A stretch of 64,000 nucleotides of DNA from Kiritimatiellia bacterium (GCA_045641645.1 JAZUHK010000047.1:51316-115315); one strand, 5' to 3'; counted from the first letter of the stretch, positions 41,422 to 57,900 are shown. Notes: a model not told the origin generated them from the sequence alone. Made by a program: numbers and translations.

Positions 41422-43203
41422 TCAGTCGTCGAGCGCGCGGAGATCGAGCTTAAGGACCTTCGCCGCCGAGCCCTGGCGCTGGCCCGGCTCTTGCTTGGCT
41501 CCACTGACGTATTCGCGCCCCATTACCGCATTGGTGGGAAGCCCCACGTCGCTCGGCAGATCGGCGGGATTCGCGATGCCGATCGTCACGCACACGATGA
41601 TCTCCTTCTGCACCTTCTGGCGGCTCTTCCAGCCGAAGAGCTTCGGACCGATCCACGGGATCTTGCGGAGATAGGGGATGCCGGAATCGACATCGTCCTC
41701 CACGGTGCGCGAGAGTCCGCCGATGACCGCCGTTGAGCCGTCCTTCATCGTGAACTCGGTGGTGATGCGCTTCATTGCGATTACCGGGAAGAGCCCGTAG
41801 GAACTGTCGCTCTGGATGTTGTAGAAGCCGGTGGCGGTGGTCTCGGTATCGAGTTGCGAAATGGTGGGGATGATCTCGACGGAAATGAGACCGTCGGGCG
41901 AGATGCGCGGCTTGACGCTCAGCTCGATGCCCCACTGGTAGAAGCAGGAGCCGGAGAAGAGCGCCTTGTCGCGGTAGTCGAGCTCTTTGTGCCCGCGCTC
42001 GCCGGGGATCTCCTGGATCTCGGCGGCAGTGTCGAGATAGGCGCCGTAGCTGGTGTCGTTGCGCTGCGAGGTGAGTTTCACGTTCGGAAACTTGGTGGTC
42101 ATATCGACGACGGCCTCCTTGCCGTTGGAGACGATGACCTTCGGGTTGGAGAAGATCCTGCCTTCGCCGAACTCCTCGAAGGCCGAGAGTGCGAGGCGGA
42201 AGTCGTCGGCGGAGAGCTGGCCGGAAAAGCCGGAGGCGTTGCGCCAACCCATCGATTCCGCCGAAAGCCCGGCGCCCGTCGCTTCCTTGATGGCGTCCGG
42301 GCGCAGAAAATTCGCAGTGGTATAGTCGCGTACGGACTTGCCGTCGGAGATGTCGTTGCCTTCGGCATTGAACTGCTTGGGCTGGTAGAAGTGGTCGGAC
42401 TTGCCGTTCGAATAGTGAGCGGCCTTGCCGCTGTTGAATTCGATGCCGCCGGAGATGTTCTTGGCCGTCATCCCCCAGCTTTCGAGCTGGTTCCACTGGA
42501 TGCCCAGCTTGTGCATCGCCTCGCTCGAAAGTTCGAGGAAACGCGCCTCGATGTAGATCTGGGCGACGGCCTTGTCCACGGCCTTGACGATCGATTCGCA
42601 GTCGGCGATGGTCTTTTCGGTGGCGGTGACGACCACCACGTTGGCGCCCGCGAAGCAGGTGGCGACGGGAATGGTGATTTCGCCCTTGTCGTCCTTCTGG
42701 CCGTAGGACTGGTTGAAGAGCACGGTCAGCTCGGAGGCGGAGGCGTGATTGAGCGTGAAGGTCTTGGTGAGGATGGGATCCGCGACCTTGTCTTCCTTGA
42801 CGAAGTAGATTTCGCCGCGTTTCTCCAGCCGATAGTTGCGCGAATTGAGGATCGACTGAAGGGCGTCGAACCAGGGGACACGGTGAAGGTTCACCGAGAC
42901 GCGCCGCAGGAGGTTGGTGGAATCGTCGGAGATGATGTTCGCATCCGTCACCTTGCGGAACTGCCGCAGGACATCGGCCAGCGTGGTGTCGTCGCAGGCG
43001 ATATCGACGAGCGTCGTCGCCGCCGGCGAGTCGAGCCGCGAGATCCGCGCCTGATGCGCGGCATCGGCGGAATCGTCGATTTCCCCGAGATCGATCACGT
43101 CGGCCTTCATCTCTACGGCGGCGGCCGGGGTGACGGCGCTTTCTTCGGCGAAGGCGCCGAAGCAGGCGAGCAGCAAGGCAAAGAGGACGTGTTTCTGGTT
43201 CAT
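41422..43203 (-). CDS. Secretin (GspD/PilQ family outer-membrane channel)
   Basis: Signal peptide, N-domains, and a C-terminal secretin block …VIGGLSRTVEDDVDSGIPYLRKIPWIGPKLFGWKSRQKVQKEIIVCVT…. Confidence 0.8.
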   Translation of the reverse strand: MNQKHVLFALLLACFGAFAEESAVTPAAAVEMKADVIDLGEIDDSADAAHQARISRLDSPAATTLVDIACDDTTLADVLRQFRKVTDANIISDDSTNLLRRVSVNLHRVPWFDALQSILNSRNYRLEKRGEIYFVKEDKVADPILTKTFTLNHASASELTVLFNQSYGQKDDKGEITIPVATCFAGANVVVVTATEKTIADCESIVKAVDKAVAQIYIEARFLELSSEAMHKLGIQWNQLESWGMTAKNISGGIEFNSGKAAHYSNGKSDHFYQPKQFNAEGNDISDGKSVRDYTTANFLRPDAIKEATGAGLSAESMGWRNASGFSGQLSADDFRLALSAFEEFGEGRIFSNPKVIVSNGKEAVVDMTTKFPNVKLTSQRNDTSYGAYLDTAAEIQEIPGERGHKELDYRDKALFSGSCFYQWGIELSVKPRISPDGLISVEIIPTISQLDTETTATGFYNIQSDSSYGLFPVIAMKRITTEFTMKDGSTAVIGGLSRTVEDDVDSGIPYLRKIPWIGPKLFGWKSRQKVQKEIIVCVTIGIANPADLPSDVGLPTNAVMGREYVSGAKQEPGQRQGSAAKVLKLDLRALDD

Positions 43204-43703
43204 TGGCCGGATCCTTTCTCTTCCGGGGAGGTTGGGATTTCGCGCAATTTGACGCGCAGAAGCTTCAGGGTGTTGGTTGCCGCCGACATCTGGAGGCGCC
43301 AGGTGAAGCGGTAGCCATTGTGGTTGACGGAAATGAGGTCGCCGTCGGCATAGACCTTGCCGTTGACGGTGACGGCCGAACGGCCGGCGTCGGCGTCGGT
43401 TCTCAGGGTGCTGCCGAATCTGAGCGTCTTGCGCGCCCGCGTCCAGAGGCGGTCGATGCCGGGGCCGTCTGCCATGTTGACGGGCTCGAATTCGGCAGCG
43501 GCCGTGGCGGTGACATTGGTGGCGGCGGTTTTCGTGTCGGGCGCTGCCGCCGGAGCCGCAATCCGGACCTGCGGGTCCTCGACGATCGCTTCGCGTTCGC
43601 CGACGTAGCCCTCCGGCCAGAAGGGATTGCGCAGCGGCGTGGCGGCGGCGAGGAGCGCGGCGAGGAGCATGGTCATCGGACGGCTCCTTTCTTCATGGGC
43701 CAT
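43200..43703 (-). CDS. PilP-like pilus assembly protein (hypothetical)
   Basis: Small protein with signal/lipoprotein-like N-terminus and a beta-rich C-terminus, encoded between the PilO-like gene and the secretin (pilMNOPQ order). Confidence 0.4.
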   Translation of the reverse strand: MAHEERSRPMTMLLAALLAAATPLRNPFWPEGYVGEREAIVEDPQVRIAAPAAAPDTKTAATNVTATAAAEFEPVNMADGPGIDRLWTRARKTLRFGSTLRTDADAGRSAVTVNGKVYADGDLISVNHNGYRFTWRLQMSAATNTLKLLRVKLREIPTSPEEKGSGQ

Positions 43704-44260
43704 TCGAAAACGAAGGTGATCTGCTGCAGTTCGGGATCGGCCGTCGCCGTGACCGAGAGCGCGGTGAGGGATACGAGCTCGAAGCGCTTTTCCACGCAGC
43801 GAACGAGGGATACGGCCGCTTGGTAACTGCCGCGGCAGGTGATCCGGATCGGTTCGCGCACGAATTGCTCCTGCGCGGCGAGACCGAAGACGGGCAGTGC
43901 GACGGGTTCTTGGGCCTCGTACTCGAGATTGATGAGCCCGCAGCCGGTGGCAAGCGGATCGATCAGCGCCTTTGCGCGCATGGCCGTCGATTCGAGGAGG
44001 GGCGTCATCAGCCCCGCATCGTAGGTAGCGCGGCGGACGGATTTCTCGTTCAGCCCGCGGAGGATGATCTCCTTTTGCGCGAGATCGTCAAGGACGGTGC
44101 GCTGGCGGACGATCTGCTCTTCCAGGACGGCGTGGGCCGCCGTCAGGTTGAGATCGGCAGGTTCGATGACGCCGAAGTAGAACGCCGCGCCGACGACGCC
44201 GAAGGCGAGCGTGAGCAGGAGGGATTGCCGGGTGTCTGGCGGCCTTAGCTGGAGTTTCAC
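43673..44260 (-). CDS. PilO-like inner-membrane pilus assembly protein
   Basis: GTG start 8 nt after an AGGAGG RBS, single N-terminal TM (LLLTLAFGVVGAAFYFGVI) then a coiled coil. The longer ORF start at 44791 lacks an RBS and overlaps the PilN-like gene. Confidence 0.5.
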   Translation of the reverse strand: MKLQLRPPDTRQSLLLTLAFGVVGAAFYFGVIEPADLNLTAAHAVLEEQIVRQRTVLDDLAQKEIILRGLNEKSVRRATYDAGLMTPLLESTAMRAKALIDPLATGCGLINLEYEAQEPVALPVFGLAAQEQFVREPIRITCRGSYQAAVSLVRCVEKRFELVSLTALSVTATADPELQQITFVFEWPMKKGAVR

Positions 44261-44913
44261 GGCGTGAACCTCCTCTCCTGGACGAGATATTCGATATCGA
44301 AGACGAGTTTCCGCTGTTCTTCGCCTTTCTTCGGCAGGTCCTGCTTGAACGCCTTGACCCGCGGACTGACGATCCCTTCTTCGGGATGCTGACAGACCTC
44401 CAGCAGGTTGGTGAAGGGCTCGGCCGTGAGCGAACGCATCAGCATAAGCACCGGCTGTTCCTGCGGGGTGCGCCCGACGAGCGAGAAGGTAGTGCGTTCG
44501 ACATATCCCGTCGATGGCTCGGCAATCTCCGGCAAGGCCGGCGGCGGCATCGAGAGGGTGACGAGCTGGACTTGCGGCGGCATCACTTCGGCGAGCGCGC
44601 CGAGCGCCGAACCGACGCGGCGAACCGATTTGCGGTAGCAGTCGAGCTGCTCCAGCTGGGCATCGAGCTCGTTGGCTTCCGCCATCAGCTCGATGATCTC
44701 CTGGTGGGGATTGGTCTGTTGGACGAGCTCTTGGTCGATCCGTCCGCTCATGGACTTGGTGAGCATCAGCTGCCCGACGAGGATCGCCCACCAGATGACC
44801 AGCCCCACGCAGGCGAAAAGCGCGAAGATTGGAGCCATCACGCGGAAGCGGACGGGCGAGGAGCTCACGCGCTCCGAAGGACGGAGGAGATTGAGATGAA
44901 GCGGCGTCTTCAT
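44257..44913 (-). CDS. PilN-like protein
   Basis: N-terminal LNLLRP-type motif, one TM (MAPIFALFACVGLVIWWAILV), and a coiled coil. Confidence 0.5.
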   Translation of the reverse strand: MKTPLHLNLLRPSERVSSSPVRFRVMAPIFALFACVGLVIWWAILVGQLMLTKSMSGRIDQELVQQTNPHQEIIELMAEANELDAQLEQLDCYRKSVRRVGSALGALAEVMPPQVQLVTLSMPPPALPEIAEPSTGYVERTTFSLVGRTPQEQPVLMLMRSLTAEPFTNLLEVCQHPEEGIVSPRVKAFKQDLPKKGEEQRKLVFDIEYLVQERRFTP

Positions 44914-45965
44914 GCGACGCGCTCCTCTCCCATCAGTGCCAACGCCGCCCCCAGCGCGGCGGCGAAGGCCTCGGATCCGGCGGCTCCCGGTACGGCAGAC
45001 AGATCGATGTCTAATTTAAGCCCGTCGAGGGGATTGACGCTGCAGAGCGGCAGCTTGAGCCGTTCTTCGACGAGGGCTCCGAAATAGCGGTCGTCAGGCG
45101 GAATGCCCAGCGCGAGGATGCGGGCGGGGGCGGCACCGAGCGTGCCGACGAGATAGTCGCGAGAGGCGCCGAGTTCGTTGAGAAGCGGCGCGAGGAGCGG
45201 CTCCAGCGCGGGCCGAGGATCGATGAGCGTGTCGCTCAGGACGCATGCGGCCATGTTCTCGCCGAGCCCCAGCCGCCGTTCGAGCGCGGCGGAAAGTTCG
45301 CGCCAGCCGGCGAGTTCGCGACAGTTCCGCCAGAGGACGAGTTCGCCGCCCTTGTAGCCGGCGACGGAGAATTCCGCAGGCGAAGCGAAGAGCACGACGG
45401 CGGTGCCGCCGTCGGCGATGAAGGCGGGCGTATTGTGCAGACAGGCGGCGAGCGCGGCGTGACGCACTTGGATGGAGGCCGCCGTGGGACGGTATCCCTC
45501 GGGCAGCAGTCGCGAGAGCCAGAGCACTTGGTATTCGGGGAGCGACGCTTCCATCACGAAGCCCGCGCTCGCGGCGAGCGGCTTCATTACATGGCGTATG
45601 CCGCCGTGGGATACGGGAACACCGGGAGCGATGTCAAAAGCGAAGGCGTCGCGCGTCGTCTGCGAAAAGGTGGCGTTGGCTGCGGAAACCGCGAGCGCGG
45701 CGACGGGAGATTGAAAAGGCGAAGGGAGCGACCACGAACAGCTTTTCGCCGCTGCTTCCCACGAGGTGGGCAGGGGTGCGGAGGGCGGCGGTACGAAGCC
45801 GACGGCGGCGAGATGGATGACGCCTTTGCGCTTGACGAGCCGTACGGCCGGTGCGCCGAGCGCTTCGCCGGAAGTAAGATCGATGCCGCAGACATCAACA
45901 AACGACAGACCTTTCGGTTCGCCGCCGAGAGTCAGGGTTTTCGTCTTAGTAAGTTGGATTTCCAT
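44910..45965 (-). CDS. PilM-like actin-fold pilus assembly ATPase-like protein
   Basis: About 350 aa at the first position of the pilMNOPQ-like operon, with an actin-like fold pattern (GIDLTSG…). Confidence 0.5.
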   Translation of the reverse strand: MEIQLTKTKTLTLGGEPKGLSFVDVCGIDLTSGEALGAPAVRLVKRKGVIHLAAVGFVPPPSAPLPTSWEAAAKSCSWSLPSPFQSPVAALAVSAANATFSQTTRDAFAFDIAPGVPVSHGGIRHVMKPLAASAGFVMEASLPEYQVLWLSRLLPEGYRPTAASIQVRHAALAACLHNTPAFIADGGTAVVLFASPAEFSVAGYKGGELVLWRNCRELAGWRELSAALERRLGLGENMAACVLSDTLIDPRPALEPLLAPLLNELGASRDYLVGTLGAAPARILALGIPPDDRYFGALVEERLKLPLCSVNPLDGLKLDIDLSAVPGAAGSEAFAAALGAALALMGEERVA

Positions 45966-46003
45966 CAGCGGAAAATATTATACCAAAAATTCGGGCACAA
46001 AAT

Positions 46004-46012
46004 ATGGTATAA
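46004..46012 (+). promoter_or_regulatory. Extended -10 TGGTATAAT upstream of the response-regulator gene
   Basis: aaatatggtataatgttcg, ~12 nt before the ATG. Confidence 0.4.
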
Positions 46013-46023
46013 TGTTCGCCGAC

Positions 46024-46545
46024 ATGACACAACTCCTGTTAGTTAATAACGAGCCGCGAAACCTCCAGCTGATGCGGAGTCTTTTGGAGTCGAACGGCTA
46101 TGGAGTGGTGACGGCGACCGACGGTTTTTCGGCTTTGGAGATTGTCAGGAACGGGCAGGTACGGGCGGTGCTGGCCGATTTGCGAACGGGGTCGATGGAC
46201 GGCTTGGCGTTTTTGCGTGAAGTCAGGAAGTCAAATCCCGGGCTTCCCGTGGTGTTGCTGACGGAAGAGGTCGGTTTCGAAGCGGCGCTCGCGGCGATGC
46301 AAGAGGGGGTCTTCGATTATCTCGTCAAGCCATTCAGAGTGGACGAACTGCTCGCTTGCCTGCGGCGCGCGGAAGGGCGGGAAGCCGGCGGCGAACGGGT
46401 GTTGCTAAAAGGGTTCTTGCGGAAAAAGGAGAAGGAGTGCATCGGCGAGCTGCTGTCGGCGGCAGACGAGGCGGACGATCGTGCGGCGGCGGCAATGAAA
46501 TCGTCGCTCGCGGCGTTGGATAGCCGCCTATCCGCCGAATCTTGA
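46024..46545 (+). CDS. Response regulator, receiver domain with a short C-terminal extension and no DNA-binding domain
   Basis: …LLLVNNEPRNLQLMRSLLE…VLADLRTGSMDGLAFLREVR…LVKPF… has the CheY-like D/D/K residues. Divergent from the pilM operon. Confidence 0.75.
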   Translation: MTQLLLVNNEPRNLQLMRSLLESNGYGVVTATDGFSALEIVRNGQVRAVLADLRTGSMDGLAFLREVRKSNPGLPVVLLTEEVGFEAALAAMQEGVFDYLVKPFRVDELLACLRRAEGREAGGERVLLKGFLRKKEKECIGELLSAADEADDRAAAAMKSSLAALDSRLSAES

Positions 46546-46626
46546 TTCTTCATCACGAAATTTGCTACAATGTCTTTCGTAATCGGCAAAGTGTCGGTTG
46601 CGGCTACAAAAAAGGAAAAACAAAAA

Positions 46627-46989
46627 ATGAATATGAAAATGAAGTCGGGCTTTACGCTCGTTGAAATCATGATTGTGGTCGCAATCATCGCCATCTTGGC
46701 TGCGATTGCGATTCCGAACTTCGTCAAGTACCGCAAGGAGTCGCAACTTAGCGCCTGCCTCAGCAGTCAGGCGTCGATTACTACGGCGGCCGAGAGCTGG
46801 TTGTCCAAGCCGGCGAACGCCACCGCGACGTCGATCAAGGATACGGATATCGCGCCGGCGGACGGCTCTGGGTATCTCAAGACCTTTCCCACCTGCCCGG
46901 CTGGCGGCAAGTACACGATTACGGTTGATTCGAAGACCAAGGCGGTCGTCGTCAAGTGTTCGCTGACTGAACACGCGGCCACCAAGTAA
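46627..46989 (+). CDS. Type IV pilin / pseudopilin, probable major subunit
   Basis: Prepilin leader MNMKMKSG|FTLVEIMIVVAIIAILAAIAIPNF with a conserved Glu5. A strong terminator lies downstream. Confidence 0.8.
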   Translation: MNMKMKSGFTLVEIMIVVAIIAILAAIAIPNFVKYRKESQLSACLSSQASITTAAESWLSKPANATATSIKDTDIAPADGSGYLKTFPTCPAGGKYTITVDSKTKAVVVKCSLTEHAATK

Positions 46990-47011
46990 CCCGCTTTGCT
47001 TAAAGGGATAA

Positions 47012-47050
47012 AAAAGAGGAGCGGATTTTCAAGGTCTGCTCCTCTTTTTG
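47012..47050 (+). terminator. Rho-independent terminator (stem agaggagc / gctcctct, 15-nt loop, TTTT)
   Basis: aaaaagaggagcggattttcaaggtctgctcctctttttg. Confidence 0.7.
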
Positions 47051-48715
47051 ATAAAAGCCCGCCTTTATATGGCCAAACTCCACGCGATACGACCGGGAAA
47101 CAAGACGCTTGAGGAAATCAAGGCGCTTGCCAATCCGGTCGAGTACGTACTGTCGGCGGCCGAGTACTTTTCCCTGCCGCCGATGGTGGTGCCTTCGGGA
47201 TTCGTCCCCGCAGAGTCGCTTTTAAGCGGGCAGGCAATCGGCTTTTGGCTGAAGGCCAAGGCCGTGCCGCTGTGCCGGGTGGCGGGCAAGCTGACGGTTG
47301 CCTTTGCCGATCCCTTCGATCTTCCGTCGCGCGAAGAGGTCGCGCGCGTCGCCGGCGGCTCCCTGTGGGCGGTAGTGGCGGCGGAAGAGGCGATTCTCAA
47401 TGCGCTCACGCGCGCGAAGATGTCGGAAGCCGCCGCCGATCCCGCATTGGCGCTGGAGAATGTGATGAAGGGGTCGGAGGGAGTGGTCGAGATTGCCGAG
47501 AGCGCGGCAGCTCCGGAAACTTCCTTTGATGCGACGGAGGATGCGTCGGGCGAGGCCCCGGTCATCCGCATGGTCAATTCGATGCTGGTGGAGGCCCTGA
47601 AGACGAACGCCTCCGACATCCACTTCGAGGCGATGGAGAAGACCTCGCGCCTGCGCTTCCGCATCGACGGCGCGCTCGTCGAACGGCCGGCGCCGCCGAA
47701 GGCGCTCCATAACGCCGTCGTCTCGCGCATCAAGATCATGGCGAACCTCGATATCGCCGAGCGGCGGCAGCCGCAGGACGGGCGCTTCAAGGTGCATGCG
47801 CTCAAGAAGGAGGTCGATGTGCGCGTTTCGATCCTCCCCACGGTACATGGCGAGAAGGTGGTGATGCGCATTCTCGACAAGGAGAACCTGGCGCCGGGCC
47901 TCGGCTCGCTCGGGCTCGACGACTACGCCTTCGAGGCGATGAAGTTTGCGATCGAGCAGCCGCACGGCATCATCCTGGTGACGCGCCCGACCGGCTCCGG
48001 CAAGACCACCACGCTCTATTCGTGTCTGCAGGATCTCAATCGCGGCGAGGTAAATATCGTCACGGCCGAAGATCCGGTCGAATACGAGCTGCCCGGCGTC
48101 AATCAGTGTCATGTCAATGTGGCGCAGGGGCTGACATTCGCGGGCATTCTCCGCTCGGTCTTGCGGCAGGATCCCGATATCGTGCTCGTCGGCGAAATCC
48201 GCGACGGCGAAACGGCCGATATCGCGGTGAAGGCGGCCCTGACCGGCCACCTCGTCCTTTCCACCCTGCATACGAATGACGCCTGCGGCGTGGTGCCGCG
48301 GCTTATCGATATGGGCGTGCAGCCGTTTATGCTCGGCTCGTCGCTTATTCTCGCGCAGGCCCAGCGGCTCTATCGGCGGCTTTGTCCCCATTGCCGGCAA
48401 AGGGTCGAAGTCAATCGCGAACTTCTGGAGGCGAACAATGTCGATCCCGCGCCGTTCGAGGGTGTGGAGGTCTTCGGCCCCGGCGGGTGTCCGAAGTGCA
48501 ACGGCACCGGCTACAAGGGGCGGGGCGCGATGATGGAGGTGTTGCCGATTACGCCGAAGATCCGTTCGATCATTTCGACTGGGGGTAATGCCGGGATATT
48601 GCGGGCGGCGGCGCTGGAAGAGGGGATGGTCACTTTGAAGGAAGCGGGGATGATGAAGGTGCGTGCGGGGCTTACCTCGCTGGAGGCGGCGCTGATGGTC
48701 ACGGGAGGAGAGTGA
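47048..48715 (+). CDS. GspE/PilB-family secretion ATPase, copy 1
   Basis: Walker A GPTGSGKTTT, Asp box, Walker B, His box, and a C-terminal tetracysteine CPHC…CPKC. Confidence 0.85.
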   Translation: MIKARLYMAKLHAIRPGNKTLEEIKALANPVEYVLSAAEYFSLPPMVVPSGFVPAESLLSGQAIGFWLKAKAVPLCRVAGKLTVAFADPFDLPSREEVARVAGGSLWAVVAAEEAILNALTRAKMSEAAADPALALENVMKGSEGVVEIAESAAAPETSFDATEDASGEAPVIRMVNSMLVEALKTNASDIHFEAMEKTSRLRFRIDGALVERPAPPKALHNAVVSRIKIMANLDIAERRQPQDGRFKVHALKKEVDVRVSILPTVHGEKVVMRILDKENLAPGLGSLGLDDYAFEAMKFAIEQPHGIILVTRPTGSGKTTTLYSCLQDLNRGEVNIVTAEDPVEYELPGVNQCHVNVAQGLTFAGILRSVLRQDPDIVLVGEIRDGETADIAVKAALTGHLVLSTLHTNDACGVVPRLIDMGVQPFMLGSSLILAQAQRLYRRLCPHCRQRVEVNRELLEANNVDPAPFEGVEVFGPGGCPKCNGTGYKGRGAMMEVLPITPKIRSIISTGGNAGILRAAALEEGMVTLKEAGMMKVRAGLTSLEAALMVTGGE

Positions 48716-48722
48716 GAAGGGG

Positions 48723-49793: not shown

Positions 49794-49803
49794 GGGGTAG
49801 GGG

Positions 49804-50499
49804 ATGCAAGATTTTACGATAAAACTACAGCAAAGCATTGACTTCTTCGAGCAGGTGCTCAAGGCACTGCCCGATGATCCCGTGGCGCTTGAGTTTCTTG
49901 CGGCCGTCTATTCTTATCTCGGCCAGCACGAAAAAGCCGAGGAAATGCAGTTCGCGCTTGCCCGCGTCCGTCGGCAAGAGCAAGTCGGCAAAAGCGCCGC
50001 CGAACCGCCGTTGCCGCCCGATTTCATTCCGGTCGCCGCAACGGAAGGGGAGCTTGTCGCGCAGGCCGTCGAAAGCGAAGCTTCGCTGGCGGAGGAACTC
50101 GGCGAATCGGCGCTGGCGGAGCGCCTTCGCAAGTCACCCGTCGGCGGGAAGCTGTCGCTCGTTTCTGCACTCGCGGGGTTGGCTAAGGAAAATCCAAGCG
50201 CGGCAGAGTCCGCCCTTAGGTCGCTTGCCGACCGGTATGGCGTTCCGCCGGTGCCACTGGAGGCCTTTGAGCCCGAGGCAGCGTTGGTGAAGCGGATCCC
50301 CGAAGAGCTTTTGCGCGTCCGCGGCGTCATTCCCTTCGCTCGGCTCGGCGATTGGGCGCTGGTGGCCTTGCTTTCGCCGCAGGATTCCCAGTTGCGGAAT
50401 TCCGTTTCCAAGGCGCTGGGCGGCAAGGTTCAGTTCTATCTCGGCGAACCGCGGGCGGTGACGGCCGCGCTCGCCAAGCTTTTCCCGGAGGCGGATTAG
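49804..50499 (+). CDS. Standalone GspE-N (T2SSE_N / MshEN-like) domain protein
   Basis: C-terminal half …ELLRVRGVIPFARLGDWALVALLSPQD… matches the N-terminal domain of GspE ATPases; no ATPase domain is present. Confidence 0.45.
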   Translation: MQDFTIKLQQSIDFFEQVLKALPDDPVALEFLAAVYSYLGQHEKAEEMQFALARVRRQEQVGKSAAEPPLPPDFIPVAATEGELVAQAVESEASLAEELGESALAERLRKSPVGGKLSLVSALAGLAKENPSAAESALRSLADRYGVPPVPLEAFEPEAALVKRIPEELLRVRGVIPFARLGDWALVALLSPQDSQLRNSVSKALGGKVQFYLGEPRAVTAALAKLFPEAD

Positions 50500-50503
50500 G
50501 ACG

Positions 50504-50839
50504 ATGCGCCGGGGCTTTACGCTCGTGGAATGCCTGGTGGCGGGAATGATCCTTGCGCTGGTCGCGACCGCCGTCCTGAAGGGCTTTGCCGTAGTGGGGC
50601 GCGTGGCGAATGAAAACGCCCAGTATCTGGAGGCGGACGCGATCGTGTGGGATGCGCTCGCCGAGGCCTTTACCAATGAGGTTTGCGAGCTGGACGCGGC
50701 GGTGAGCGTTCAGGGTTTTCCGGGCGAAATCCACCGACGGCTGGCCGGTGATCGGATCGTCGCGTGGGTCGAGTGGAACGGGCAGATGCACTCGAACGAA
50801 CTCCTGCGCGCCTGCTGCAAGCGGGGGAAGGGGAAATGA
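50504..50839 (+). CDS. Minor pseudopilin, prepilin-type N-terminal domain
   Basis: MRRG|FTLVECLVAGMILALV. Confidence 0.65.
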   Translation: MRRGFTLVECLVAGMILALVATAVLKGFAVVGRVANENAQYLEADAIVWDALAEAFTNEVCELDAAVSVQGFPGEIHRRLAGDRIVAWVEWNGQMHSNELLRACCKRGKGK

Positions 50840-51084
50840 GCGCGCGCCGTGCGGGCTTCACGCTTTTGGAACTGCTGATCGCTTCGGCCATCGGCACGCT
50901 GTGTCTCGCCGGAGTGCTCGTCTTCTTCACCGGAACCAATCGGCTGAACCGCGAAACCTTCGGCAAGCTCAAGGGGGCGCTGGACGAGCGGGTGGAGCGC
51001 GAGAAGACCTTGTTCGTCAGGGCTCGTGAAACGGCCACGGTCGATCTGCCGTTCGTCAAGCGCGCCTGGGAGGTGGTGAAGTGA
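50836..51084 (+). CDS. Minor pseudopilin, prepilin-type N-terminal domain
   Basis: MSARRAG|FTLLELLIASAIGTL; ATGA overlap with the upstream gene. Confidence 0.6.
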   Translation: MSARRAGFTLLELLIASAIGTLCLAGVLVFFTGTNRLNRETFGKLKGALDERVEREKTLFVRARETATVDLPFVKRAWEVVK

Positions 51085-53060
51085 ATGCGCGGCGATGGCG
51101 GCGGGGGTTTGCGCTTCCGCTGGTCCTGGTGGTCACTTCGCTCGCCACGGTCGCGCTGGCCGCGCTCGGCGGCTATGCGGCGTTTTCGTCACGGATGACG
51201 CGCTATTACCTGGCCGAGACCCGCTGCCGGCTGGCCGCGCAGTCCGCGCTGGAGATGACCAAGGCGGATTTGCAGGCGGCGTTCCTGCAGTATGTGGGCG
51301 AGGTATCGCCGGGCGTGAAGATCACGCCAGTGCGGCTTGGGGACGATGTGCTCGAATGGTTTGACGCGGGGGATGCGCGCAGCATCGGAACGCGCGTCGT
51401 CTATGAGGCGGCGGAATCGGTGCGGTTGGGCGGGTGTGAGGTTCGGGTGTGGTTCGGCAACCACCGAAACGCGCGCGTCGAGATCCGCGCACGTGCGACT
51501 TGCCGCGTTTTCGGCGGACCGGTGGCATCTTCGACCTTGCAGGAGACGGTGGAGTTTTCCTTCGTGCCCGAGCAGAGCCCGGTTTTCGACAATGCCTATT
51601 TCGTCAACAACTTCGGCTGGATGACGGGCAGTTCCCTGGTCGTCAACGGGCGGATGCGGGCGAACGGCAACATCAGCTTGTCGGCTTCGACGGTGAACGG
51701 TTTCATCTATGCGGCGAGAAACGAGGAGGTGGGAGCCGACGGCAGGGTGTCGCTCTCCTCCAGTCCGCAGATCAAAAGCGCCGCGGCCTATCGTTCCGGC
51801 TATGGCAACCGCACCTGCCCCGATGTGGGCGACTATCCGATTTCCGATGCCTATGACGCGCCGAAGGCGAGCGGAACCCTCGCCAAGCCGACGCGCTATG
51901 AATATGACGAAAGCGGCTGGTTGGTCAAGAACCGGATCGGCGGTACGCGCGCGGCGGATTCGGAGGAGGCGATCATCAACGAATATGCTGCGGCCGTCCC
52001 CATGCCGTTCGTTTCGGACCTTAAGGATTATGTCGATTACGCGCAAATGCTGAAGGCCGGCGCGAACGGCGTTTCCGCGCGTCTTACCTATCCCGGCTAC
52101 AGTTATACGGATGCGGCGGGGACGGTTCACCGACAGGCGGGGGGCGTGGTGGAGGTCCGTCATTCGGGCGCCGGTCCTTCGGGGGACGCCTCGCTCGCCG
52201 ACCGGGGCGCGCTCGTCCTTGTCGGTACGCAGACCGACCCCATCGTGATCGACGGCCCCGTGGTGGTGGATTCCGATGTCGTCATCAAGGGCTACGTGAA
52301 GGGACAGGGAACGATCTACTCAGGGCGGAACATCCATATTATCGGTGACATTAAGTACGTGAACCCGCCGTCCTGGGGCCATCCCGACGCGGATGACGCG
52401 GCGGTCGCCGAACGGAATGCGGGCAAGGACATGCTCGGCCTCGTCGCCAAGGGGAATATCGTCTTCGGCGATGCGCGTACGGAGAATCAGAAATGGCATG
52501 AGAAGGTGGACGAATACATCAACGGCGCTTCGTCCGCCTCGGTGGTCAAGCGCTATGCCTGCGACCCGAGTGACGCCGACATCGGCTATCCCGCCGTCTT
52601 CCAGGGCGACTACACGGCGGTCGAGACGGTGAACGGCAAGACCTTCGGCAAGGTGCGCTCGCGGACGGTGACGAACGCGGACGGTTCGAAGCAGGTGGAG
52701 TTCTATACCGCCGACGACCGCCGCTACTACGAGACGGTGTGTGACGACTCGCTCATCAGGTCACTGCGGGATTCTCCGCAGAAAGACATGGTGGAAATCA
52801 CCCAGATCGACGCCGTACTCTACAATAACCACGGCATCTTCGGGGAGATCGGCCGCCCGAGCGCGAACTTCAACCTCAACGGTGCGCTCGTCTGTCGCGA
52901 CGAGGCGCTGCACTTCACGGGCAACAGCTGCCGCTTCAACTGGGATTTCCGGCTGGGGAGGGCGAGCGGCGAGAAGTTCCGTGCGCGCCTCGGCTTGCCC
53001 GTGGGGATGCCGGAGGACGTGATGCGCACGGTCGAATGGAAGGAGCTTGCGGACGAATGA
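51081..53060 (+). CDS. Large (659 aa) pilus-associated protein with an N-terminal hydrophobic anchor (GspK/PilX/PilY-like tip or adhesin candidate)
   Basis: MNARRWRRGFALPLVLVVTSLATVALAAL N-terminus followed by a large beta-rich domain; sits in pseudopilin operon context. Confidence 0.45.
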   Translation: MNARRWRRGFALPLVLVVTSLATVALAALGGYAAFSSRMTRYYLAETRCRLAAQSALEMTKADLQAAFLQYVGEVSPGVKITPVRLGDDVLEWFDAGDARSIGTRVVYEAAESVRLGGCEVRVWFGNHRNARVEIRARATCRVFGGPVASSTLQETVEFSFVPEQSPVFDNAYFVNNFGWMTGSSLVVNGRMRANGNISLSASTVNGFIYAARNEEVGADGRVSLSSSPQIKSAAAYRSGYGNRTCPDVGDYPISDAYDAPKASGTLAKPTRYEYDESGWLVKNRIGGTRAADSEEAIINEYAAAVPMPFVSDLKDYVDYAQMLKAGANGVSARLTYPGYSYTDAAGTVHRQAGGVVEVRHSGAGPSGDASLADRGALVLVGTQTDPIVIDGPVVVDSDVVIKGYVKGQGTIYSGRNIHIIGDIKYVNPPSWGHPDADDAAVAERNAGKDMLGLVAKGNIVFGDARTENQKWHEKVDEYINGASSASVVKRYACDPSDADIGYPAVFQGDYTAVETVNGKTFGKVRSRTVTNADGSKQVEFYTADDRRYYETVCDDSLIRSLRDSPQKDMVEITQIDAVLYNNHGIFGEIGRPSANFNLNGALVCRDEALHFTGNSCRFNWDFRLGRASGEKFRARLGLPVGMPEDVMRTVEWKELADE

Positions 53061-53368
53061 TCGACTCGACGGTAGATCCCCGGTTCGCCGCGTTCGAGCG
53101 CGCGGAGGTGCGGAAGGCGGCGGCGGCCGCTCTCGCGCGGCGGGACGCCGCACCCGAACACCGGGTCTATCGCGGCGAACTCGCCGCGCTCGCCAGGCCG
53201 CCGGCGGTGGCCGCGGAGACGGCTTTGGTGGCGACGGAGGGCGTGCCGGACGCGCCGACGGAGCCGTCCGTCGCCGCGTCGGCCGACTGGCTTTGGCTGC
53301 TCTTGGGCGTCGTCATGGCCGCTTTCGGCGTCTGGCTGGGCGCTTGCAGGCGCAGGCGGGCCACTTGA
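53036..53368 (+). CDS. Small protein with a C-terminal TM anchor plus RRRR tail (hypothetical)
   Basis: …DWLWLLLGVVMAAFGVWLGACRRRRAT. Confidence 0.3.
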   Translation: MEGACGRMIDSTVDPRFAAFERAEVRKAAAAALARRDAAPEHRVYRGELAALARPPAVAAETALVATEGVPDAPTEPSVAASADWLWLLLGVVMAAFGVWLGACRRRRAT

Positions 53369-53404
53369 TTTCCCAAAGGGGTTTCGCTATAATTCTCACC
53401 AACA

Positions 53405-55072
53405 ATGACAAGTAACGACGAATATGTCCTGCAGTTGCTGACCGAGCGCGGGTTCCTCACGCAGGAACAGGTTGACGACGCCGCGTCGTCAATGCGCGCC
53501 GAGAACGAAACGACGCTCGATGCGCTCCTGTCGAGCGGCGTGGTCAACGAGGACGAGGTCCTCGGGACGGTGGCCGACCAGTTCGGCCTCAAATACTGCC
53601 ATGTCAACGCCGAGGTGATCAACCCCGAGGTCGTCAAGGAGCTTCCGGCCGATATCGCCAAGAAGTATTCGGTCGTGCCCGTGATGGCCGACGAGTATGC
53701 GATCACGGTGGCGCTCTCCGACCCGATGGCCTACGATACCATCGATTCGCTGCGCTATGTGCTCCACGGGCGCGACGTCGAGGCGGTCATCGCGCCGCGC
53801 GCCGAGGTGAAGGCGGCGATGGTGAAGCTCTATCAGGAGGAGGCGCCGGCCGATGTCACCACGCGCGACGAGGGGATCGTGGGGCTCGAAACCGATCCCG
53901 GCGACGAGACCCCGGTGGTGAAGCTGACCACGATGCTCATCACCACGGCCATCAAGATGAAGGCGTCGGATATCCACATTGAGCCGATGGAGAAGGAGCT
54001 GCGCGTCCGCTACCGCATCGACGGCGCGCTCCGCAAGATGGATTCGCCGCCGAAGCGCCTGCAGTCGGCGATTATCTCGCGCCTCAAGATCATGTCGCAC
54101 ATGAAGATCTCGGAGAAGCGCATCCCGCAGGACGGCCGCATTCAGATTACGGTGAACGGCAAGGATCTCGACCTCCGCGTCAACTCCGTGCCCACCAATC
54201 ACGGCGAGTCGATCGTCATGCGTATTCTCGACAAGACGACCTTCTCGCTGGGGCTTCCCCAGCTCGGCTTCCTGACCGACGACCAGGCCACCTTTGAGCG
54301 GCTCATCAAGCTCCCGGACGGCGTCGTGCTGGTGACGGGGCCGACAGGTTCCGGCAAGACGACTACGCTTTACGCCTGCCTCGGGCAGATCAACACCCCC
54401 GACAAGAAGCTCATCACCGTCGAGGACCCGGTCGAATACCAGATGAGCGGCATCAACCAGGTGCAGGTCAACAAGGACGTGGGGCTCGACTTCTCGGCGG
54501 CCCTCCGCTCGATCCTCCGTCAGGCGCCGAACATCGTGATGGTCGGCGAAATCCGTGACGAGGAGACGGCCGATATCGCGATGGAGGCGGCGCTCACCGG
54601 CCACCTCGTGTTCTCGACCCTCCATACCAACGACGCGCCGAGCGCGGTCACCCGTCTCTTGGATATCGGCGTCAAGCCGTTCCTCGTCGCCTCGGCCCTG
54701 CGCGCCGCGATGGCGCAGCGTCTCGTCCGCGCCATTTGCGAGAACTGCAAGGAGCCGTACCAACCCACCGAGCGCGAGGTGAAGATGCTCGGTTCGATCG
54801 CGAAGACGATGCCCGAGCGCATGTTCCACGGCGCCGGCTGCGACAAGTGCGGCAAGACCGGCTACAAGGGCCGCAAGGGCATTTTCGAGATCTTCAAGGT
54901 TGACGACACCATCCAGCGGCTCATCTTCGACCACGCTCCCGCGACGCTCCTCCGGCAACGCGCGCGTGAGATGGGGATGCGCACGCTGCGCGAGGACGGG
55001 ATGCTCAAGGTGGCGAGCGGAATGACTTCGCTTGCGGAGATCCTGCGGGTGACAATGGGAGATGCGGACTGA
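53405..55072 (+). CDS. GspE/MshE-family ATPase, copy 2, with an MshEN-type N-terminal domain
   Basis: N-terminal LQLLTERGFLTQEQVDDA and LDALLSSGVVNEDEVLGTVA repeats (MshEN-like), Walker A GPTGSGKTTT, and tetracysteine CENC…CDKC. Confidence 0.85.
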   Translation: MTSNDEYVLQLLTERGFLTQEQVDDAASSMRAENETTLDALLSSGVVNEDEVLGTVADQFGLKYCHVNAEVINPEVVKELPADIAKKYSVVPVMADEYAITVALSDPMAYDTIDSLRYVLHGRDVEAVIAPRAEVKAAMVKLYQEEAPADVTTRDEGIVGLETDPGDETPVVKLTTMLITTAIKMKASDIHIEPMEKELRVRYRIDGALRKMDSPPKRLQSAIISRLKIMSHMKISEKRIPQDGRIQITVNGKDLDLRVNSVPTNHGESIVMRILDKTTFSLGLPQLGFLTDDQATFERLIKLPDGVVLVTGPTGSGKTTTLYACLGQINTPDKKLITVEDPVEYQMSGINQVQVNKDVGLDFSAALRSILRQAPNIVMVGEIRDEETADIAMEAALTGHLVFSTLHTNDAPSAVTRLLDIGVKPFLVASALRAAMAQRLVRAICENCKEPYQPTEREVKMLGSIAKTMPERMFHGAGCDKCGKTGYKGRKGIFEIFKVDDTIQRLIFDHAPATLLRQRAREMGMRTLREDGMLKVASGMTSLAEILRVTMGDAD

Positions 55073-56205
55073 TGCAATTTCATCGCGACGAGCTTTTGCA
55101 GGCGATTATCGACGAAGGGGGCAGCGCCCTCCACATCCGTGCGCGCATGGCGCCGGAACTGCGCGTCCACGGCGAGCTGCTGCCGCTCGCCGAGGAGGTG
55201 ATGAATGACGACGAGGCCGAGGCGCTCGTGCACGAGTTCGTGCAAGGCGTGGCCGATCAGGACAAGGACCCTCGCCGCCAGAAGGACGTCGAGAAGCTCC
55301 TGAACGAACTGGAGACGAACGGCGGCGCCGACTTCGCGCTCGCCCATCCCGACGGCACCCGTTTCCGTGTCTCGGTCTTCAAGGAGAGAAAGCGCTACGG
55401 CGCCGTCCTCCGTCAGATTCCGAGCGGGCTCCTCACGCTGGAGCAGATCGGCCTGCCGCCGACCGTGCGCGAACTCCTCTTCAAGCCGCGCGGACTCATC
55501 CTCGTGACGGGCCCCACGGGTTCCGGCAAATCGACGACGCTCGCCTCGATGATTGACGTCATCAACCGCGAGCGCTCGGTGCATATCATCACCATCGAGG
55601 ACCCGATCGAATTCTATCATGAGTCGAAGCGCTCGATCATCACCCAACGCGAGGTGGGCGACGACGTGCCGAGCTTTGCCGAGGCGATCCGCCGCGCGCT
55701 CCGTCAGGACCCGGACGTCATCCTCGTCGGCGAAATGCGCGACCTGGAGACGATCGCCGCGGCCATCACCGCGGCGGAAACCGGCCACCTCGTCTTCGGC
55801 ACCCTGCATACGACCGGGTCGGCCGAGACGATCGACCGTATCGTCGATGCCTTCCCGATGAACCAGCAGGCGCAGATCCGCACGCAGCTTGCCGCCGGCA
55901 TGCAGGCCGTCATTTCGCAGATCCTGCTGCCGAAGCTCGATGCGAACGGCGAGGTCCACGGGCGTATCGCCGCGTTCGAGATCATGACCTCCACCGACTC
56001 CATCCGCAGCCGCATCCGCGACAACAAGACGAACATGATCAAGTCCGACTTGCAGACGGGCGCGAAGTACGGCATGTTCACGCTCGACTCGCACCTCACC
56101 TCGCTTTACAAGCAGGGGCTCATCTCCTACGAGGAGCTGATCACCAAGTCGCAGGACCCGGAGTCGGTCGTGCAGAAGCTCAAAGAGGAAGGATACGGCG
56201 AATGA
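55072..56205 (+). CDS. pilT: Twitching-motility retraction ATPase PilT/PilU family
   Basis: 377 aa with Walker A GPTGSGKSTT and a PilT-specific C-terminal region; no N-terminal GspE-N domain. Confidence 0.85.
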   Translation: MQFHRDELLQAIIDEGGSALHIRARMAPELRVHGELLPLAEEVMNDDEAEALVHEFVQGVADQDKDPRRQKDVEKLLNELETNGGADFALAHPDGTRFRVSVFKERKRYGAVLRQIPSGLLTLEQIGLPPTVRELLFKPRGLILVTGPTGSGKSTTLASMIDVINRERSVHIITIEDPIEFYHESKRSIITQREVGDDVPSFAEAIRRALRQDPDVILVGEMRDLETIAAAITAAETGHLVFGTLHTTGSAETIDRIVDAFPMNQQAQIRTQLAAGMQAVISQILLPKLDANGEVHGRIAAFEIMTSTDSIRSRIRDNKTNMIKSDLQTGAKYGMFTLDSHLTSLYKQGLISYEELITKSQDPESVVQKLKEEGYGE

Positions 56206-57890
56206 CAGATCCGGTTCTCCAGATCCTCATCCAGAACGGCTATCTCGACGAAGAGGGTGCCCAAGACCTCGCCGAAATCGCCAAGAGCGAGCAGAAGCCC
56301 ATCCGCCGCCTCGTGGTGGACCAGGGCGTCCTGTCGGAGGAGGATCTCCTGGCGGCGATGGCCGCCTATCAGGACACCGAGGCGATCGACCTTGCGTCGA
56401 TGACGATCGAGACCGACGTCACCGAGGCGATTCCCGCCTCGACCGCGCGCATGTACAATGTCTTCCCGATCGCCGCCGACGACTGCTCGGTGACGCTCGC
56501 GACCTTCGATCTCATCGATCCGCGCATTTCCGACGAGATGCTCTTCACGCTCTCGAAGGAGGTGCGGTTCGTCTTTGCGAAGGAACAGGACGTGATGGAT
56601 CGCATCGCCCAGTACTACGGCGATGCGAACGAGTCGGTTGCCGACATGATCAAGTCGCTCGGCGAGGGCATGACCGACGAGGAGGGGCTTACCGGCAACG
56701 CGAACGACATCGCCTCGATGGAGAACGCGGCGAACGCCTCGGCGATCATCCGCTTCGTGAACCGCGTCCTCTATCAGGGCGTGGTGGACCGCGCCTCCGA
56801 CATCCACATCGAGCCCTTCGAGAAGGACTTCAAGATCCGCTACCGCGTCGATGGCGCGCTTTACGAGATGAAGGCGCCGGATGTGTCGATGGCGCCGGCG
56901 ATCATCTCGCGCATCAAGATCCTCTCCAACCTCAATATCGCCGAGAAGCGCATTCCGCAGGACGGGCGCATTGCGCTCACCGTCGCGGGGAAGCCCGTCG
57001 ATCTGCGTGTCTCGTGCCTTCCCACCGCTCACGGCGAATCGGTGGTAATGCGTATTCTCGACCAGTCCGCGACTTCGCTCGACCTCGAGAACGTGGGGCT
57101 CCCCGAGGACGTTTACGAGCAGATCACGATGGACGTCGAAAAGCCAAACGGCATCTTCATCGTGACGGGGCCGACGGGTTCCGGCAAGACCACCACGCTC
57201 TATTCCATCCTCCGCCGCATCAACCAAATCGATACCAAGCTCCTCACGGCCGAGGAGCCGGTCGAATACAATGTGGACGGCATCGTCCAGGTGCCCATCG
57301 ACGCGCACGTCGGCAATACCTTCGCGAAGGTGCTCCGCGCCTTCCTGCGTCAGGACCCGGACGTGATGATGATCGGCGAGATCCGCGACCTGGAGACGGC
57401 GGTAATCGCCGTGCAGGCGGCGCTCCCCGGCCACTTCGTCTTCTCGACCCTGCACACCAACGACGCCGCGGGCGCGGTGATGCGACTGGTGGACATGAAT
57501 GTCGCGCCCTACCTCCTCTCGGCCACGCTCGAAGGCGTCCTCGGCCAGCGACTCGTGAGAACCTGCTGCCGCGAGTGCCGCCAGTCCTACGAGCCCGATG
57601 ACGAGACGCTCGACCGCATCAACATGACGCGCGACCAGACCGGCGGGCGGCCGTTCTACTTCGGCCAGGGCTGCAAGGCCTGCAACGGCACCGGCTATAA
57701 GGGCCGCAAGGGCGTTTTCGAGTATCTCCGGATGCTCGATCCGCTGAAAGAACTGGTCAATAACCGCGCACCCACGCTGGTCATTCGCGAAAAGGCACGC
57801 GAACTCGGCATGCGGACGATGCGCGAAGACGGCATTCGCTCGATTCTCGACGGCTATACGACGGTTGACGAAGTGCTGCGCTATACCTAA
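56202..57890 (+). CDS. PilB/GspE-family ATPase, copy 3, with an MshEN-type N-terminal domain
   Basis: N-terminal LQILIQNGYLDEEGAQDLA and IRRLVVDQGVLSEEDLLAAMA, Walker A GPTGSGKTTT, tetracysteine CREC…CKAC. Confidence 0.85.
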   Translation: MTDPVLQILIQNGYLDEEGAQDLAEIAKSEQKPIRRLVVDQGVLSEEDLLAAMAAYQDTEAIDLASMTIETDVTEAIPASTARMYNVFPIAADDCSVTLATFDLIDPRISDEMLFTLSKEVRFVFAKEQDVMDRIAQYYGDANESVADMIKSLGEGMTDEEGLTGNANDIASMENAANASAIIRFVNRVLYQGVVDRASDIHIEPFEKDFKIRYRVDGALYEMKAPDVSMAPAIISRIKILSNLNIAEKRIPQDGRIALTVAGKPVDLRVSCLPTAHGESVVMRILDQSATSLDLENVGLPEDVYEQITMDVEKPNGIFIVTGPTGSGKTTTLYSILRRINQIDTKLLTAEEPVEYNVDGIVQVPIDAHVGNTFAKVLRAFLRQDPDVMMIGEIRDLETAVIAVQAALPGHFVFSTLHTNDAAGAVMRLVDMNVAPYLLSATLEGVLGQRLVRTCCRECRQSYEPDDETLDRINMTRDQTGGRPFYFGQGCKACNGTGYKGRKGVFEYLRMLDPLKELVNNRAPTLVIREKARELGMRTMREDGIRSILDGYTTVDEVLRYT

Positions 57891-57900
57891 ATCATGCTCG

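Follow-up and report, generated by a model that had tools for sequence, protein, structure and literature searches.

How many machines does a pilus locus with three extension motors and one platform protein encode? A stretch of 64,000 nucleotides from a Kiritimatiellia bacterium (GCA_045641645.1, JAZUHK010000047.1:51316-115315; this whole stretch is hereafter the window) raises this question. Its type IV pilus locus (41422-57890) contains 17 genes, and open reading frame (ORF) listing and family scans found among them three PilB/GspE-type ATPases (named E1, E2 and E3), one PilT and one GspF/PilC-type platform protein. The initial annotation read this as one machine with three alternative motors on a single platform. 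We found instead that the locus is best understood as a composite of two separately evolved type IV filament modules, side by side only in this lineage, and we give this reading a probability of roughly 0.72. Module A (41422-53368) comprises 14 genes, and module B (53405-57890) consists of the triad E2-PilT-E3. The composite reading is favoured because module B has its own conservation, its own promoter-like site and its own limits of homology, and because module A ends without the triad in its relatives.

All 17 genes listed in the initial annotation, with the three GspE-family ATPases, PilT and one platform gene, are found where it placed them. The secretin and four small genes lie on the minus strand, and the genes from the response regulator through E3 lie on the plus strand. 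Lengths are in amino acids (aa), and the features are as follows:

41422-43203, minus strand: secretin, 593 aa; Pfam Secretin 95.1 bits, Secretin_N and STN weak
43200-43703, minus strand: PilP-position protein, 158-167 aa; named by position only, as every relative has it between the secretin and PilO-like genes
43673-44260, minus strand: PilO-like protein, 195 aa; weak T2SSM match and conserved position
44257-44913, minus strand: PilN-like protein, 218 aa; N-terminal HLNLL, then a membrane segment
44910-45965, minus strand: PilM-like actin-fold protein, 351 aa; predicted from an AlphaFold model and Foldseek
46012-46545, plus strand: response regulator, 177 aa; receiver domain (Response_reg 83.6 bits) and remnant of a Fis-type helix-turn-helix (HTH)
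46542-46571, plus strand: sigma-70-type promoter-like site before the pilin gene, TTGATT-18-TACAAT
46627-46989, plus strand: major prepilin, 118-120 aa, leader ...KSG/FTLVEIM; N_methyl 34 bits
47011-47054, plus strand: intrinsic terminator downstream of the pilin gene, an 18-bp stem and then a U-tract
47069-48715, plus strand: E1, extension-type ATPase, 548 aa; T2SSE 435 bits, MshEN 41.7 bits
48723-49793, plus strand: GspF/PilC-type platform protein (F), 352-356 aa, N-terminally short; T2SSF 193.5 bits, two repeats
49804-50499, plus strand: stand-alone TPR-MshEN protein (EN), 231 aa; MshEN 47 bits at residues 145-230, TPR weak
50504-50839, plus strand: minor pilin 1, 111 aa; N_methyl 22.9 bits, TIGR02532 23.8 bits
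50836-51084, plus strand: minor pilin 2, 82 aa; N_methyl 30.1 bits, TIGR02532 24.8 bits
51081-53060, plus strand: giant minor pilin, 659 aa; AlphaFold predicts an N-terminal pilin-type helix and a beta-rich, solenoid-like body
53057-53368, plus strand: small protein with a C-terminal anchor, 103 aa; final gene of module A, conserved in relatives
53365-53393, plus strand: sigma-70-type promoter-like site of E2-PilT-E3, TTGATT-17-TATAAT
53405-55072, plus strand: E2, extension-type ATPase, 555 aa; T2SSE 453 bits, MshEN 58.7 bits
55072-56205, plus strand: PilT, retraction-type ATPase, 377 aa; TIGR01420 419.1 bits (cutoff 319.1) over residues 6-364
56202-57890, plus strand: E3, second extension-type ATPase, 562 aa; T2SSE 430 bits, MshEN 52.4 bits

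The window has a G+C content of about 62%, and the nearest relatives of its proteins come from metagenome-assembled Kiritimatiellae of gut and rumen samples. We compared it with 93 related loci (labels L001-L093), in which gene calls are heuristic. Searching for exact copies of E1 and E2 retrieved no contig, and we therefore took the genomic context of the locus from ortholog loci. A tblastn search of all locus proteins against the whole 64 kb gave no further paralogs, and a motif scan for a further strict prepilin found none in the window. A tblastn search with E. coli GspO for a prepilin peptidase had no match in the window or in any locus fetched from the Planctomycetes-Verrucomicrobia-Chlamydiae (PVC) group.

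Module A recurs as a unit. We inspected its relatives in L001-L003 (near-identical contigs from three samples), L084-L086, L090 and L091, and the cassette is the same in all eight loci. The secretin and the P, O, N and M genes occupy one strand; a full NtrC-type activator, the pilin, E1 and F occupy the other, followed by EN, the two minor pilins, the giant pilin and the small anchored protein. In the closer relatives, F is additionally followed by a 120-aa gene. L091 ends inside E1. Among the seven loci that show the downstream end, none has E2-PilT-E3 after module A; a hybrid kinase or unrelated genes follow. Looking from the other side, no E1, platform, EN or giant pilin gene lies upstream of E2 in any of the 59 loci with at least 3 kb upstream. 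The juxtaposition of the two modules is limited to this lineage, and they are unlinked in every relative outside it.

This distribution bears on the interpretation of the locus as one machine, in which one platform and secretin complex would be driven alternately by E1, E2, E3 and PilT, for extension and secretion or for initiation and processive extension. The 64 kb contains a single platform gene and a single secretin set, module A lacks a PilT, and the triad follows 37 bp downstream on the same strand, an arrangement repeated in an independent assembly; all of this would suit a single machine. However, the adjacency is missing from every relative outside the lineage, and the triad is sharply bounded in its homology and preceded by a promoter-like site of its own. 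We consider a single machine doubtful, and the proposal of three motors on one platform is not supported by a triad that is separately conserved and unlinked to the E1 cassette outside the lineage.

The junction between the modules is genuine. A chimeric, misassembled metagenome-assembled genome (MAG) was considered as its cause and rejected, since an independent 4.4-kb Logan contig (L092) reproduces it, with the small anchored gene, the 37-bp gap from the end of module A to the start of E2, and an E2 N-terminus identical in 58 of 58 residues. Also on this contig, which comes from another sample, are F, EN, both minor pilins and the giant pilin (91-93% identical). The conspecific ENA contig L093 contains the GH92 gene, the secretin through PilM, the short regulator, the pilin and E1, and continues as far as the giant pilin. 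The DNA homologous to triad loci begins at about 53378-53405 and ends at 57886-57893. The plus-strand GC skew is negative (-0.006 to -0.057) only across 53405-57890, while every neighbouring gene, on either coding strand, has +0.01 to +0.22; since the coding-strand skew of orthologs ranges from about -0.22 to +0.18, the value in the window is not intrinsic to the triad genes. G+C at third codon positions (GC3) is 0.87-0.89 in the triad, the highest in the locus, versus 0.71-0.87 in module A. The skew and GC3 pattern fits a recent relocation of the triad block, or, for the skew, an inversion.

Module B is a translationally coupled operon: E2 and PilT overlap by one base (TGATG), and PilT and E3 overlap by ATGA. 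Its promoter-like site matches the consensus at 10 of 12 positions and is the best in a 12.4-kb scan. A scan with E2 gave 80 loci in Kiritimatiellia, Lentisphaerae and Verrucomicrobiota, including Chthoniobacter, Opitutales, Cerasicoccus and a MAG labelled Akkermansia. Identities of the E2 orthologs in these groups are 49-88%, and those of the E3 orthologs are 48-91%. In the 64 E2 loci with at least 3.2 kb downstream, we found E2-PilT-E3 in 46, E2-E3 in 9 and an arrangement without E3 in 9. The triad is common, not universal. E2 is directly followed by E3, without PilT, in nine Verrucomicrobiota loci (L065, L067, L074, L076, L077, L079-L082), including one labelled Akkermansia. E2-PilT is kept with no E3 downstream in five loci (L013, L014, L018, L060, L068), three of which are close Kiritimatiellia relatives.

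The triad also has machinery of its own elsewhere. A PilC paralog (F2) follows it in 24 loci; the F2 family is 45-89% identical internally and 34-39% identical to the window platform. A pilin gene comes after F2 in the three loci inspected (L062, L065, L069), and a gene for a PilM_2 protein and a secretin gene follow in L057. This ancestral company of PilC, pilin, PilM and secretin is a further point against a single machine. The pilins after the module B platform (L062:16019-16741, L065:5897-6487, L069:15883-16515) share a conserved C-terminal W-I/T-K/T-N-W ending. The MAG labelled Akkermansia muciniphila has an E2-E3-PilC-pilin locus, and the Cerasicoccus frondis genome has E2-PilT-E3-PilC. 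In the literature searched, the coverage of which was incomplete, no account of PVC bacteria with a pilB-pilT-pilB arrangement came up, which does not prove that none exists. In the window, lepA (probable start 57901) begins 10 bases past the E3 stop with no terminator-like site between (57888-57903), and lepA also follows E3 in a Verrucomicrobiota MAG (L046).

The initial annotation had noted that its reading would fail if the three ATPases proved to be undifferentiated recent tandem duplicates. They share 41-45% protein identity pairwise and about 68-71% identity in the conserved DNA core, and for this reason E1, E2 and E3 are, judged from their sequences, old, differentiated paralogs rather than the recent duplicates that would have refuted it. 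We built a neighbour-joining tree with bootstrap from 69 sequences and 494 columns, with E. coli GspE, E. coli HofB and an Acinetobacter baumannii ATPase, taken as PilB from its pilB-pilC-pilD context, as outside references. E1, E2, E3 and PilT each form a clade at 100% bootstrap, and E2 and E3 are sisters at 98.5%. The three extension ATPases stand apart from GspE, HofB and A. baumannii PilB in 86% of replicates, and a grouping of E1, E2 or E3 with E. coli GspE appears in at most 2%. The E2, E3 and PilT subtrees show largely the same genome groupings. Because E2 and E3 are sister clades with matching genome groupings, the tree places their duplication before the split of these phyla, and both copies have been equally conserved since then (mean within-group identity 62.9% for E2 and 62.5% for E3). 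The E1, E2 and E3 groups all retain the Walker A, Walker B, Asp-box and His-box motifs and the four zinc cysteines; the Asp box of E3 often reads EEP in place of EDP. E1 orthologs are abundant in Kiritimatiellae (70-82% identity).

For class assignment, we used NCBIfam equivalog cutoffs and Pfam domain models. All three ATPases miss the PilB equivalog (TIGR02538, cutoff 675.65; E1 572.7, E2 602.0, E3 550.6 bits), the GspE equivalog (TIGR02533, cutoff 630.25; E1 550.3, E2 600.5, E3 585.2 bits) and the TfpB equivalog (NF053534, cutoff 850; 422-468 bits). The nearest solved structure by sequence is PilB (E1 431, E2 483, E3 436 bits), versus 386, 418 and 396 bits for EpsE, and the nearest solved relatives are those of Geobacter and Myxococcus. 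The labels GspE and PilB given to individual copies in the initial annotation do not hold, as all three copies are under both cutoffs and all are nearer to solved PilB than to EpsE.

The N-terminal regions differ between the copies. MshEN (PF05157, cutoff 23.1) is recognized in E1, E2, E3 and EN. In E2 and E3 the alignment to the PilB model begins at residue 6-9 (in E2, it covers residues 9-551), and both also align to the NfrB MshEN region, while E1 aligns to the PilB model only from residue 69 and has no alignable first half of the tandem MshEN binding motif. E1 is not simply shorter at its N-terminus, an explanation we rejected: with its probable start at 47069 it has 548 aa against 555 aa in E2, and its first 68 or so residues are just unalignable to the PilB model. 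As inspected by eye, the R-L-G of the cyclic di-GMP motif RLGxx(L/V/I)(L/V/I)xxG...Q is replaced in E2 (YVL, TLD) and in E3 (PVL, PIR).

None of E1, E2 and E3 is of the type II secretion system (T2SS) type by any test run on their sequences. The same tests bear on a division of labour, in which module A would form an endopilus of the T2SS kind, exporting glycan-degrading enzymes with no need of a retraction motor, and module B would belong to a retractile type IVa pilus. Module A shares with the T2SS (Gsp/Eps) an ATPase and a platform of the GspE/GspF families, a secretin, short pilin-like proteins and the lack of PilT. Its order of ATPase, platform, small minor pilins and a large pilin without Glu5 recalls gspE-F...I-J-K, with the last pilin in the place of GspK. 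The minor pilins give weak GspI, GspH and GspJ matches, the PilO-like protein gives a weak T2SSM match, and genes for GH92 and another glycoside hydrolase flank the locus. On the other hand, neither GspC nor GspL was detected in module A; the GspD, GspE, GspF and GspG cutoffs are missed, E1 scoring lower with GspE than with PilB; the alignment complex is of the PilM/PilN type, encoded by separate genes; the pilin has the Cys-flanked C-terminal loop typical of type IV pilins; and ComZ, which the giant pilin resembles, belongs to a true pilus. We regard such a division of labour as unlikely.

Among the closest known systems are the type IVa pili of Myxococcus xanthus, Geobacter and Pseudomonas aeruginosa, with pilB-pilT-pilC, pilMNOPQ and a minor pilin operon. 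Common to both sides are a short-leader prepilin, PilB-type ATPases, PilT, a PilC-type platform, the PilM fold, a PilN-type motif and a secretin, and module B follows the order pilB-pilT-(x)-pilC. The differences are a second PilB-type gene (E3) after pilT, kept across three phyla; window proteins that miss all PilB, PilC and PilQ equivalog cutoffs; PilM, PilN and PilP-position proteins too divergent for family models, with PilO giving only a weak T2SSM match; and, in module A, the additional stand-alone TPR-MshEN protein and the N-terminally short platform.

The module A platform covers positions 55-399 of the 401 of the GspF model and does not reach the PilC or GspF equivalog cutoffs. It is 65-73% identical to its module A orthologs and 34-39% identical to the F2 family. 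Platform lengths are consistently about 352-357 aa in module A versus 421-464 aa in module B (F2, L041-L083). EN adjoins the platform gene in all module A loci, and its residues 101-229 match the NfrB MshEN region. That a short platform, an E1 with an unalignable N-terminus and a stand-alone TPR-MshEN protein are found in combination suggests that the interface between motor and platform has been rearranged. In a Verrucomicrobiae MAG (L069:19477-22146), an E1-like ATPase (47% identity) and an adjacent EN-like gene lie about 3 kb from an E2-PilT-E3-PilC-pilin block. This arrangement indicates that the E1/EN partnership extends beyond Kiritimatiellae and that the modules came close independently at least once.

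Both small minor pilins are above the prepilin-motif cutoff, and their GspI, GspH and GspJ matches are below cutoff and confined to the N-terminal motif. Minor pilin 2, which has ATGA start/stop overlaps on both sides, is of the same size (81-82 aa) in the closest relatives. The giant pilin has the N-terminus RRGFALPLVLVV without Glu5. It matches no family model, and its 502 homologs are confined to Kiritimatiellae-like sequences. Its AlphaFold model (pLDDT, the per-residue confidence score, 89) predicts a 64-residue helix at residues 11-74 followed by beta structure, and the sole significant match in the Protein Data Bank (PDB) is Thermus thermophilus ComZ (6qvi; E 1.3e-5, probability 0.99), with a template-modelling (TM) score of only 0.20-0.24 and 9% identity. 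The initial description of this protein as a 659-aa, pseudopilin-like giant agrees with the predicted structure. ComZ, a giant minor pilin associated with competence, shares with it a pilin-type N-terminal helix and a large beta-rich insertion; the likeness noted is one of predicted fold. The small anchored gene overlaps the giant pilin gene by ATGA, and its product has a DPxFAAFERAE motif in common with L084 and a C-terminal membrane segment with RRRR in common with L084 and L001.

On the envelope side, the secretin orthologs in L001, L024, L084-86 and L090 are about 52% identical to it. The secretin scores 148 bits with the PilQ subfamily (TIGR02515, cutoff 284.35) and 117 bits with GspD (cutoff 351), and misses both cutoffs. 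In this species, it is adjoined by a gene of the GH92 alpha-mannosidase family and another glycoside hydrolase-like gene (38984-41320 and 37638-38840; L093:594-4255), and the position that these occupy is taken by rpoN in relatives. The PilP-position protein has no Pfam or NCBIfam family match. The PilO-like protein matches T2SSM weakly (E 0.0087, 16.7 bits, cutoff 27.8), and its L001 ortholog gives a weak PF04350 PilO match. The HLNLL motif of the PilN-like protein is invariant in four orthologs, and its profile gives a weak collinear match to Myxococcus PilN (E 0.11). The PilM-like protein has 246 detected homologs and is matched by no Pfam or NCBIfam model. When its alignment and that of the PilN-like protein were searched as profiles against PDB sequences, no significant match came up. 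The PilM identification thus comes from the fold search: with an AlphaFold model (pLDDT 84.2, built from a 38-sequence alignment), the top 10 Foldseek matches in the PDB are all PilM (E 3.6e-13 to 4.5e-11), the best being 5eou (E 3.6e-13, TM 0.53), and FtsA comes next.

The control of the pilin gene has changed in this species. The divergently transcribed regulator had been described as receiver-only; the receiver is there, but an HTH remnant is kept as well, and the protein derives from a larger activator. The best NCBIfam matches of this 177-aa protein are receiver domains of sigma-54 regulators. Its residues 5-125 correspond to residues 11-131 of the L090 activator (L090:7830-9224) at 50% identity, and its tail (residues 133-176) matches the HTH region of that activator in a second BLAST segment (activator residues 378-464), the HTH remnant being degenerate and recognized at the BLAST level. 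Since the receiver and the tail match opposite ends of the L090 activator, the alignment identifies the regulator as an NtrC-type sigma-54 activator from which the AAA+ core, about 285 residues, has been lost in frame. Relatives have full-length activators of 450-464 aa. In a test for an NtrC/PilR-type activator, the window protein shows the receiver, no sigma-54 AAA+ domain and only the HTH remnant, while relatives show all three. The short form recurs in the independent assembly L093.

The pilin promoters of relatives are of the sigma-54 type (TGGCAC-N5-TTGCA in L085 and TGGCAC-N5-CTGCT in L084), and no such promoter was found upstream of the window pilin gene, which has the sigma-70-type site listed above. 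A sigma-54 pattern scan of the window gave 20 matches versus 20.5 expected by chance. In relatives, rpoN is often beside the secretin and a hybrid histidine kinase often comes after the cassette; neither adjoins module A here, and the triad E2-PilT-E3 occupies the place of the hybrid kinase in this lineage. Compared with PilR/NtrC control by sigma-54, for which relatives have the adjacent rpoN, the activator, the promoter and the kinase, the window has an activator without the AAA+ core, a sigma-70-type site before the pilin gene and neither the kinase nor the sigma-54 promoter. Sigma-54 control of the pilin gene has been lost in this species. An Rfam scan gave one tRNA only and no riboswitch near the pilus genes.

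The major prepilin, with its Cys-flanked C-terminal loop, is above the cutoff of the prepilin motif TIGR02532 (33.6 bits), below that of the PilA equivalog, and at 32.7 bits with GspG (cutoff 88.85). The strong terminator noted earlier after its gene is confirmed by a folding free energy (dG) of -27.8 kcal/mol with z -4.45, matched by none of 200 shuffles.

These losses might suggest that module A is decaying here and that the locus is a relic. The relatives' hybrid kinase, adjacent rpoN and 120-aa gene are missing along with the AAA+ core, and E1 has a unique substitution in Walker A: VTRPTGSGKT (codon CGC, 47984-47986), where 119 of 119 other E1-family sequences and the conspecific copy P0361 have VTGPTGSGKT. 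The change, a single-base replacement of Gly by Arg in the P-loop, is seen in this assembly only and is either an inactivating mutation or a MAG consensus error; a dead E1 in the species was considered and rejected, as the conspecific copy is canonical. Against decay, each of the 14 reading frames of module A is intact and has coding-type GC3; L092 and L093 contain the short regulator and the gene set in unchanged form; the Walker A change is private or a sequencing error; and a new sigma-70-type promoter-like site replaces the sigma-54 one, which is suggestive of rewiring, not decay. We consider a relic very improbable.

Several observations weigh against the composite. The second platform gene and second pilin that it calls for are inferred and not seen in the visible 64 kb. 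In the closest relatives the triad is without a neighbouring PilC; the one present in L006 and L016 is divergent (29-30% identical to the window platform) and, in L006, lies beyond three unrelated genes. In L024, a PilM/N/O/P/secretin operon of the module A type lies directly upstream of the triad, and this, together with the lack of PilT in module A, fits a shared machine. The triad is on the same strand, 37 bp past module A, with no convincing terminator between, and read-through transcription from module A into it is possible. Moreover, the tree is a neighbour-joining tree with only three outside references.

A shared machine would also have parallels, as ATPase interactions and dual extension motors are documented elsewhere (PMC11656802, PMC8213720); against this, extension ATPases are generally specific to their own machinery (PMC11656802). 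In a bolder variant, E2 and E3 would form an obligate pair, as a hetero-oligomer or by hand-over from initiation to processive extension, acting with PilT on one platform across Verrucomicrobiota, Lentisphaerota and Kiritimatiellota, and here recruited to the E1 machine to make a three-motor, glycan-capturing pilus. This is quite improbable in our assessment.

The gene identities, orthology groups, synteny pattern and ancient E2/E3 duplication are established above, as are the genuine junction and the loss of sigma-54 control. In the composite reading that we prefer, module A would be a self-contained machine of the type IVa pilus class, specific to Kiritimatiellae, with E1 as its dedicated motor. 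The secretin and the PilM/N/O/P-type alignment complex would form the envelope conduit, and the strong terminator would ensure that pilin transcripts outnumber those of the machinery. E1 and the short PilC-type platform would polymerise the filament, the TPR-MshEN protein probably supplying in trans the N-terminal adaptor function that E1 lacks, and filament priming and tip capping would probably fall to the two small minor pilins and the ComZ-like giant pilin. Module B would be an ancient pilB-pilT-pilB' operon under its own promoter-like site, in which E2 and E3, with intact catalytic motifs, work with the retraction motor PilT. Ancestrally, E2, E3 and PilT would act on their own PilC paralog and pilin, and we infer that a second platform gene exists in this genome outside the window. 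The 'single platform' stoichiometry is most likely an effect of viewing one locus.

By analogy, the filaments may serve glycan attachment or capture. In the glycan-degrading PVC bacterium Akkermansia muciniphila, MUL2 (amuc_1098-1102) is type IV pilus-like and needed for mucin uptake, and a role in glycan attachment or uptake has been proposed (PMC13174399). MUL2 and the present locus have in common a secretin followed by small proteins and a PilM-like gene. However, the window secretin matches the Amuc_1098 family weakly (65 bits versus a cutoff of 750), and the function suggested here is pure analogy, together with the flanking glycoside hydrolase genes.

The closest analogue of E2 and E3 is found in Acinetobacter baylyi, where two extension motors, PilB and TfpB, serve one type IV pilus and both are needed for full piliation (Ellison et al. 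2021, PMC8213720; reviewed in PMC11656802). There too, one organism has two phylogenetically distinct extension ATPases, about as divergent as PilB and GspE. This provides a conceptual precedent for E2 and E3 sharing one platform, and by this analogy E2 and E3 would be paired extension motors. The systems differ in that E1, E2 and E3 are not TfpB orthologs, and in that a single operon encodes E2 and E3, as sister paralogs on either side of pilT.

These results have a practical consequence for annotation, as counts of motors and platforms in one locus can mislead where modules are merely juxtaposed. The locus also shows how a sigma-54-controlled pilin operon was rewired by the in-frame loss of the AAA+ core of its activator. 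What deserves attention here is the E2/E3 pair. What multiple PilB homologs are for is listed as an open question in a 2024 PilB review (PMC11656802), and genetic evidence for two extension motors on one pilus has so far come only from A. baylyi. The pilB-pilT-pilB' operon keeps both paralogs equally conserved, with catalytic motifs intact, across at least three phyla, which argues that the second extension motor has a lasting, non-redundant role. Two extension motors sharing a platform do seem to be a conserved arrangement, one that concerns E2 and E3 and not the full set of three ATPases.

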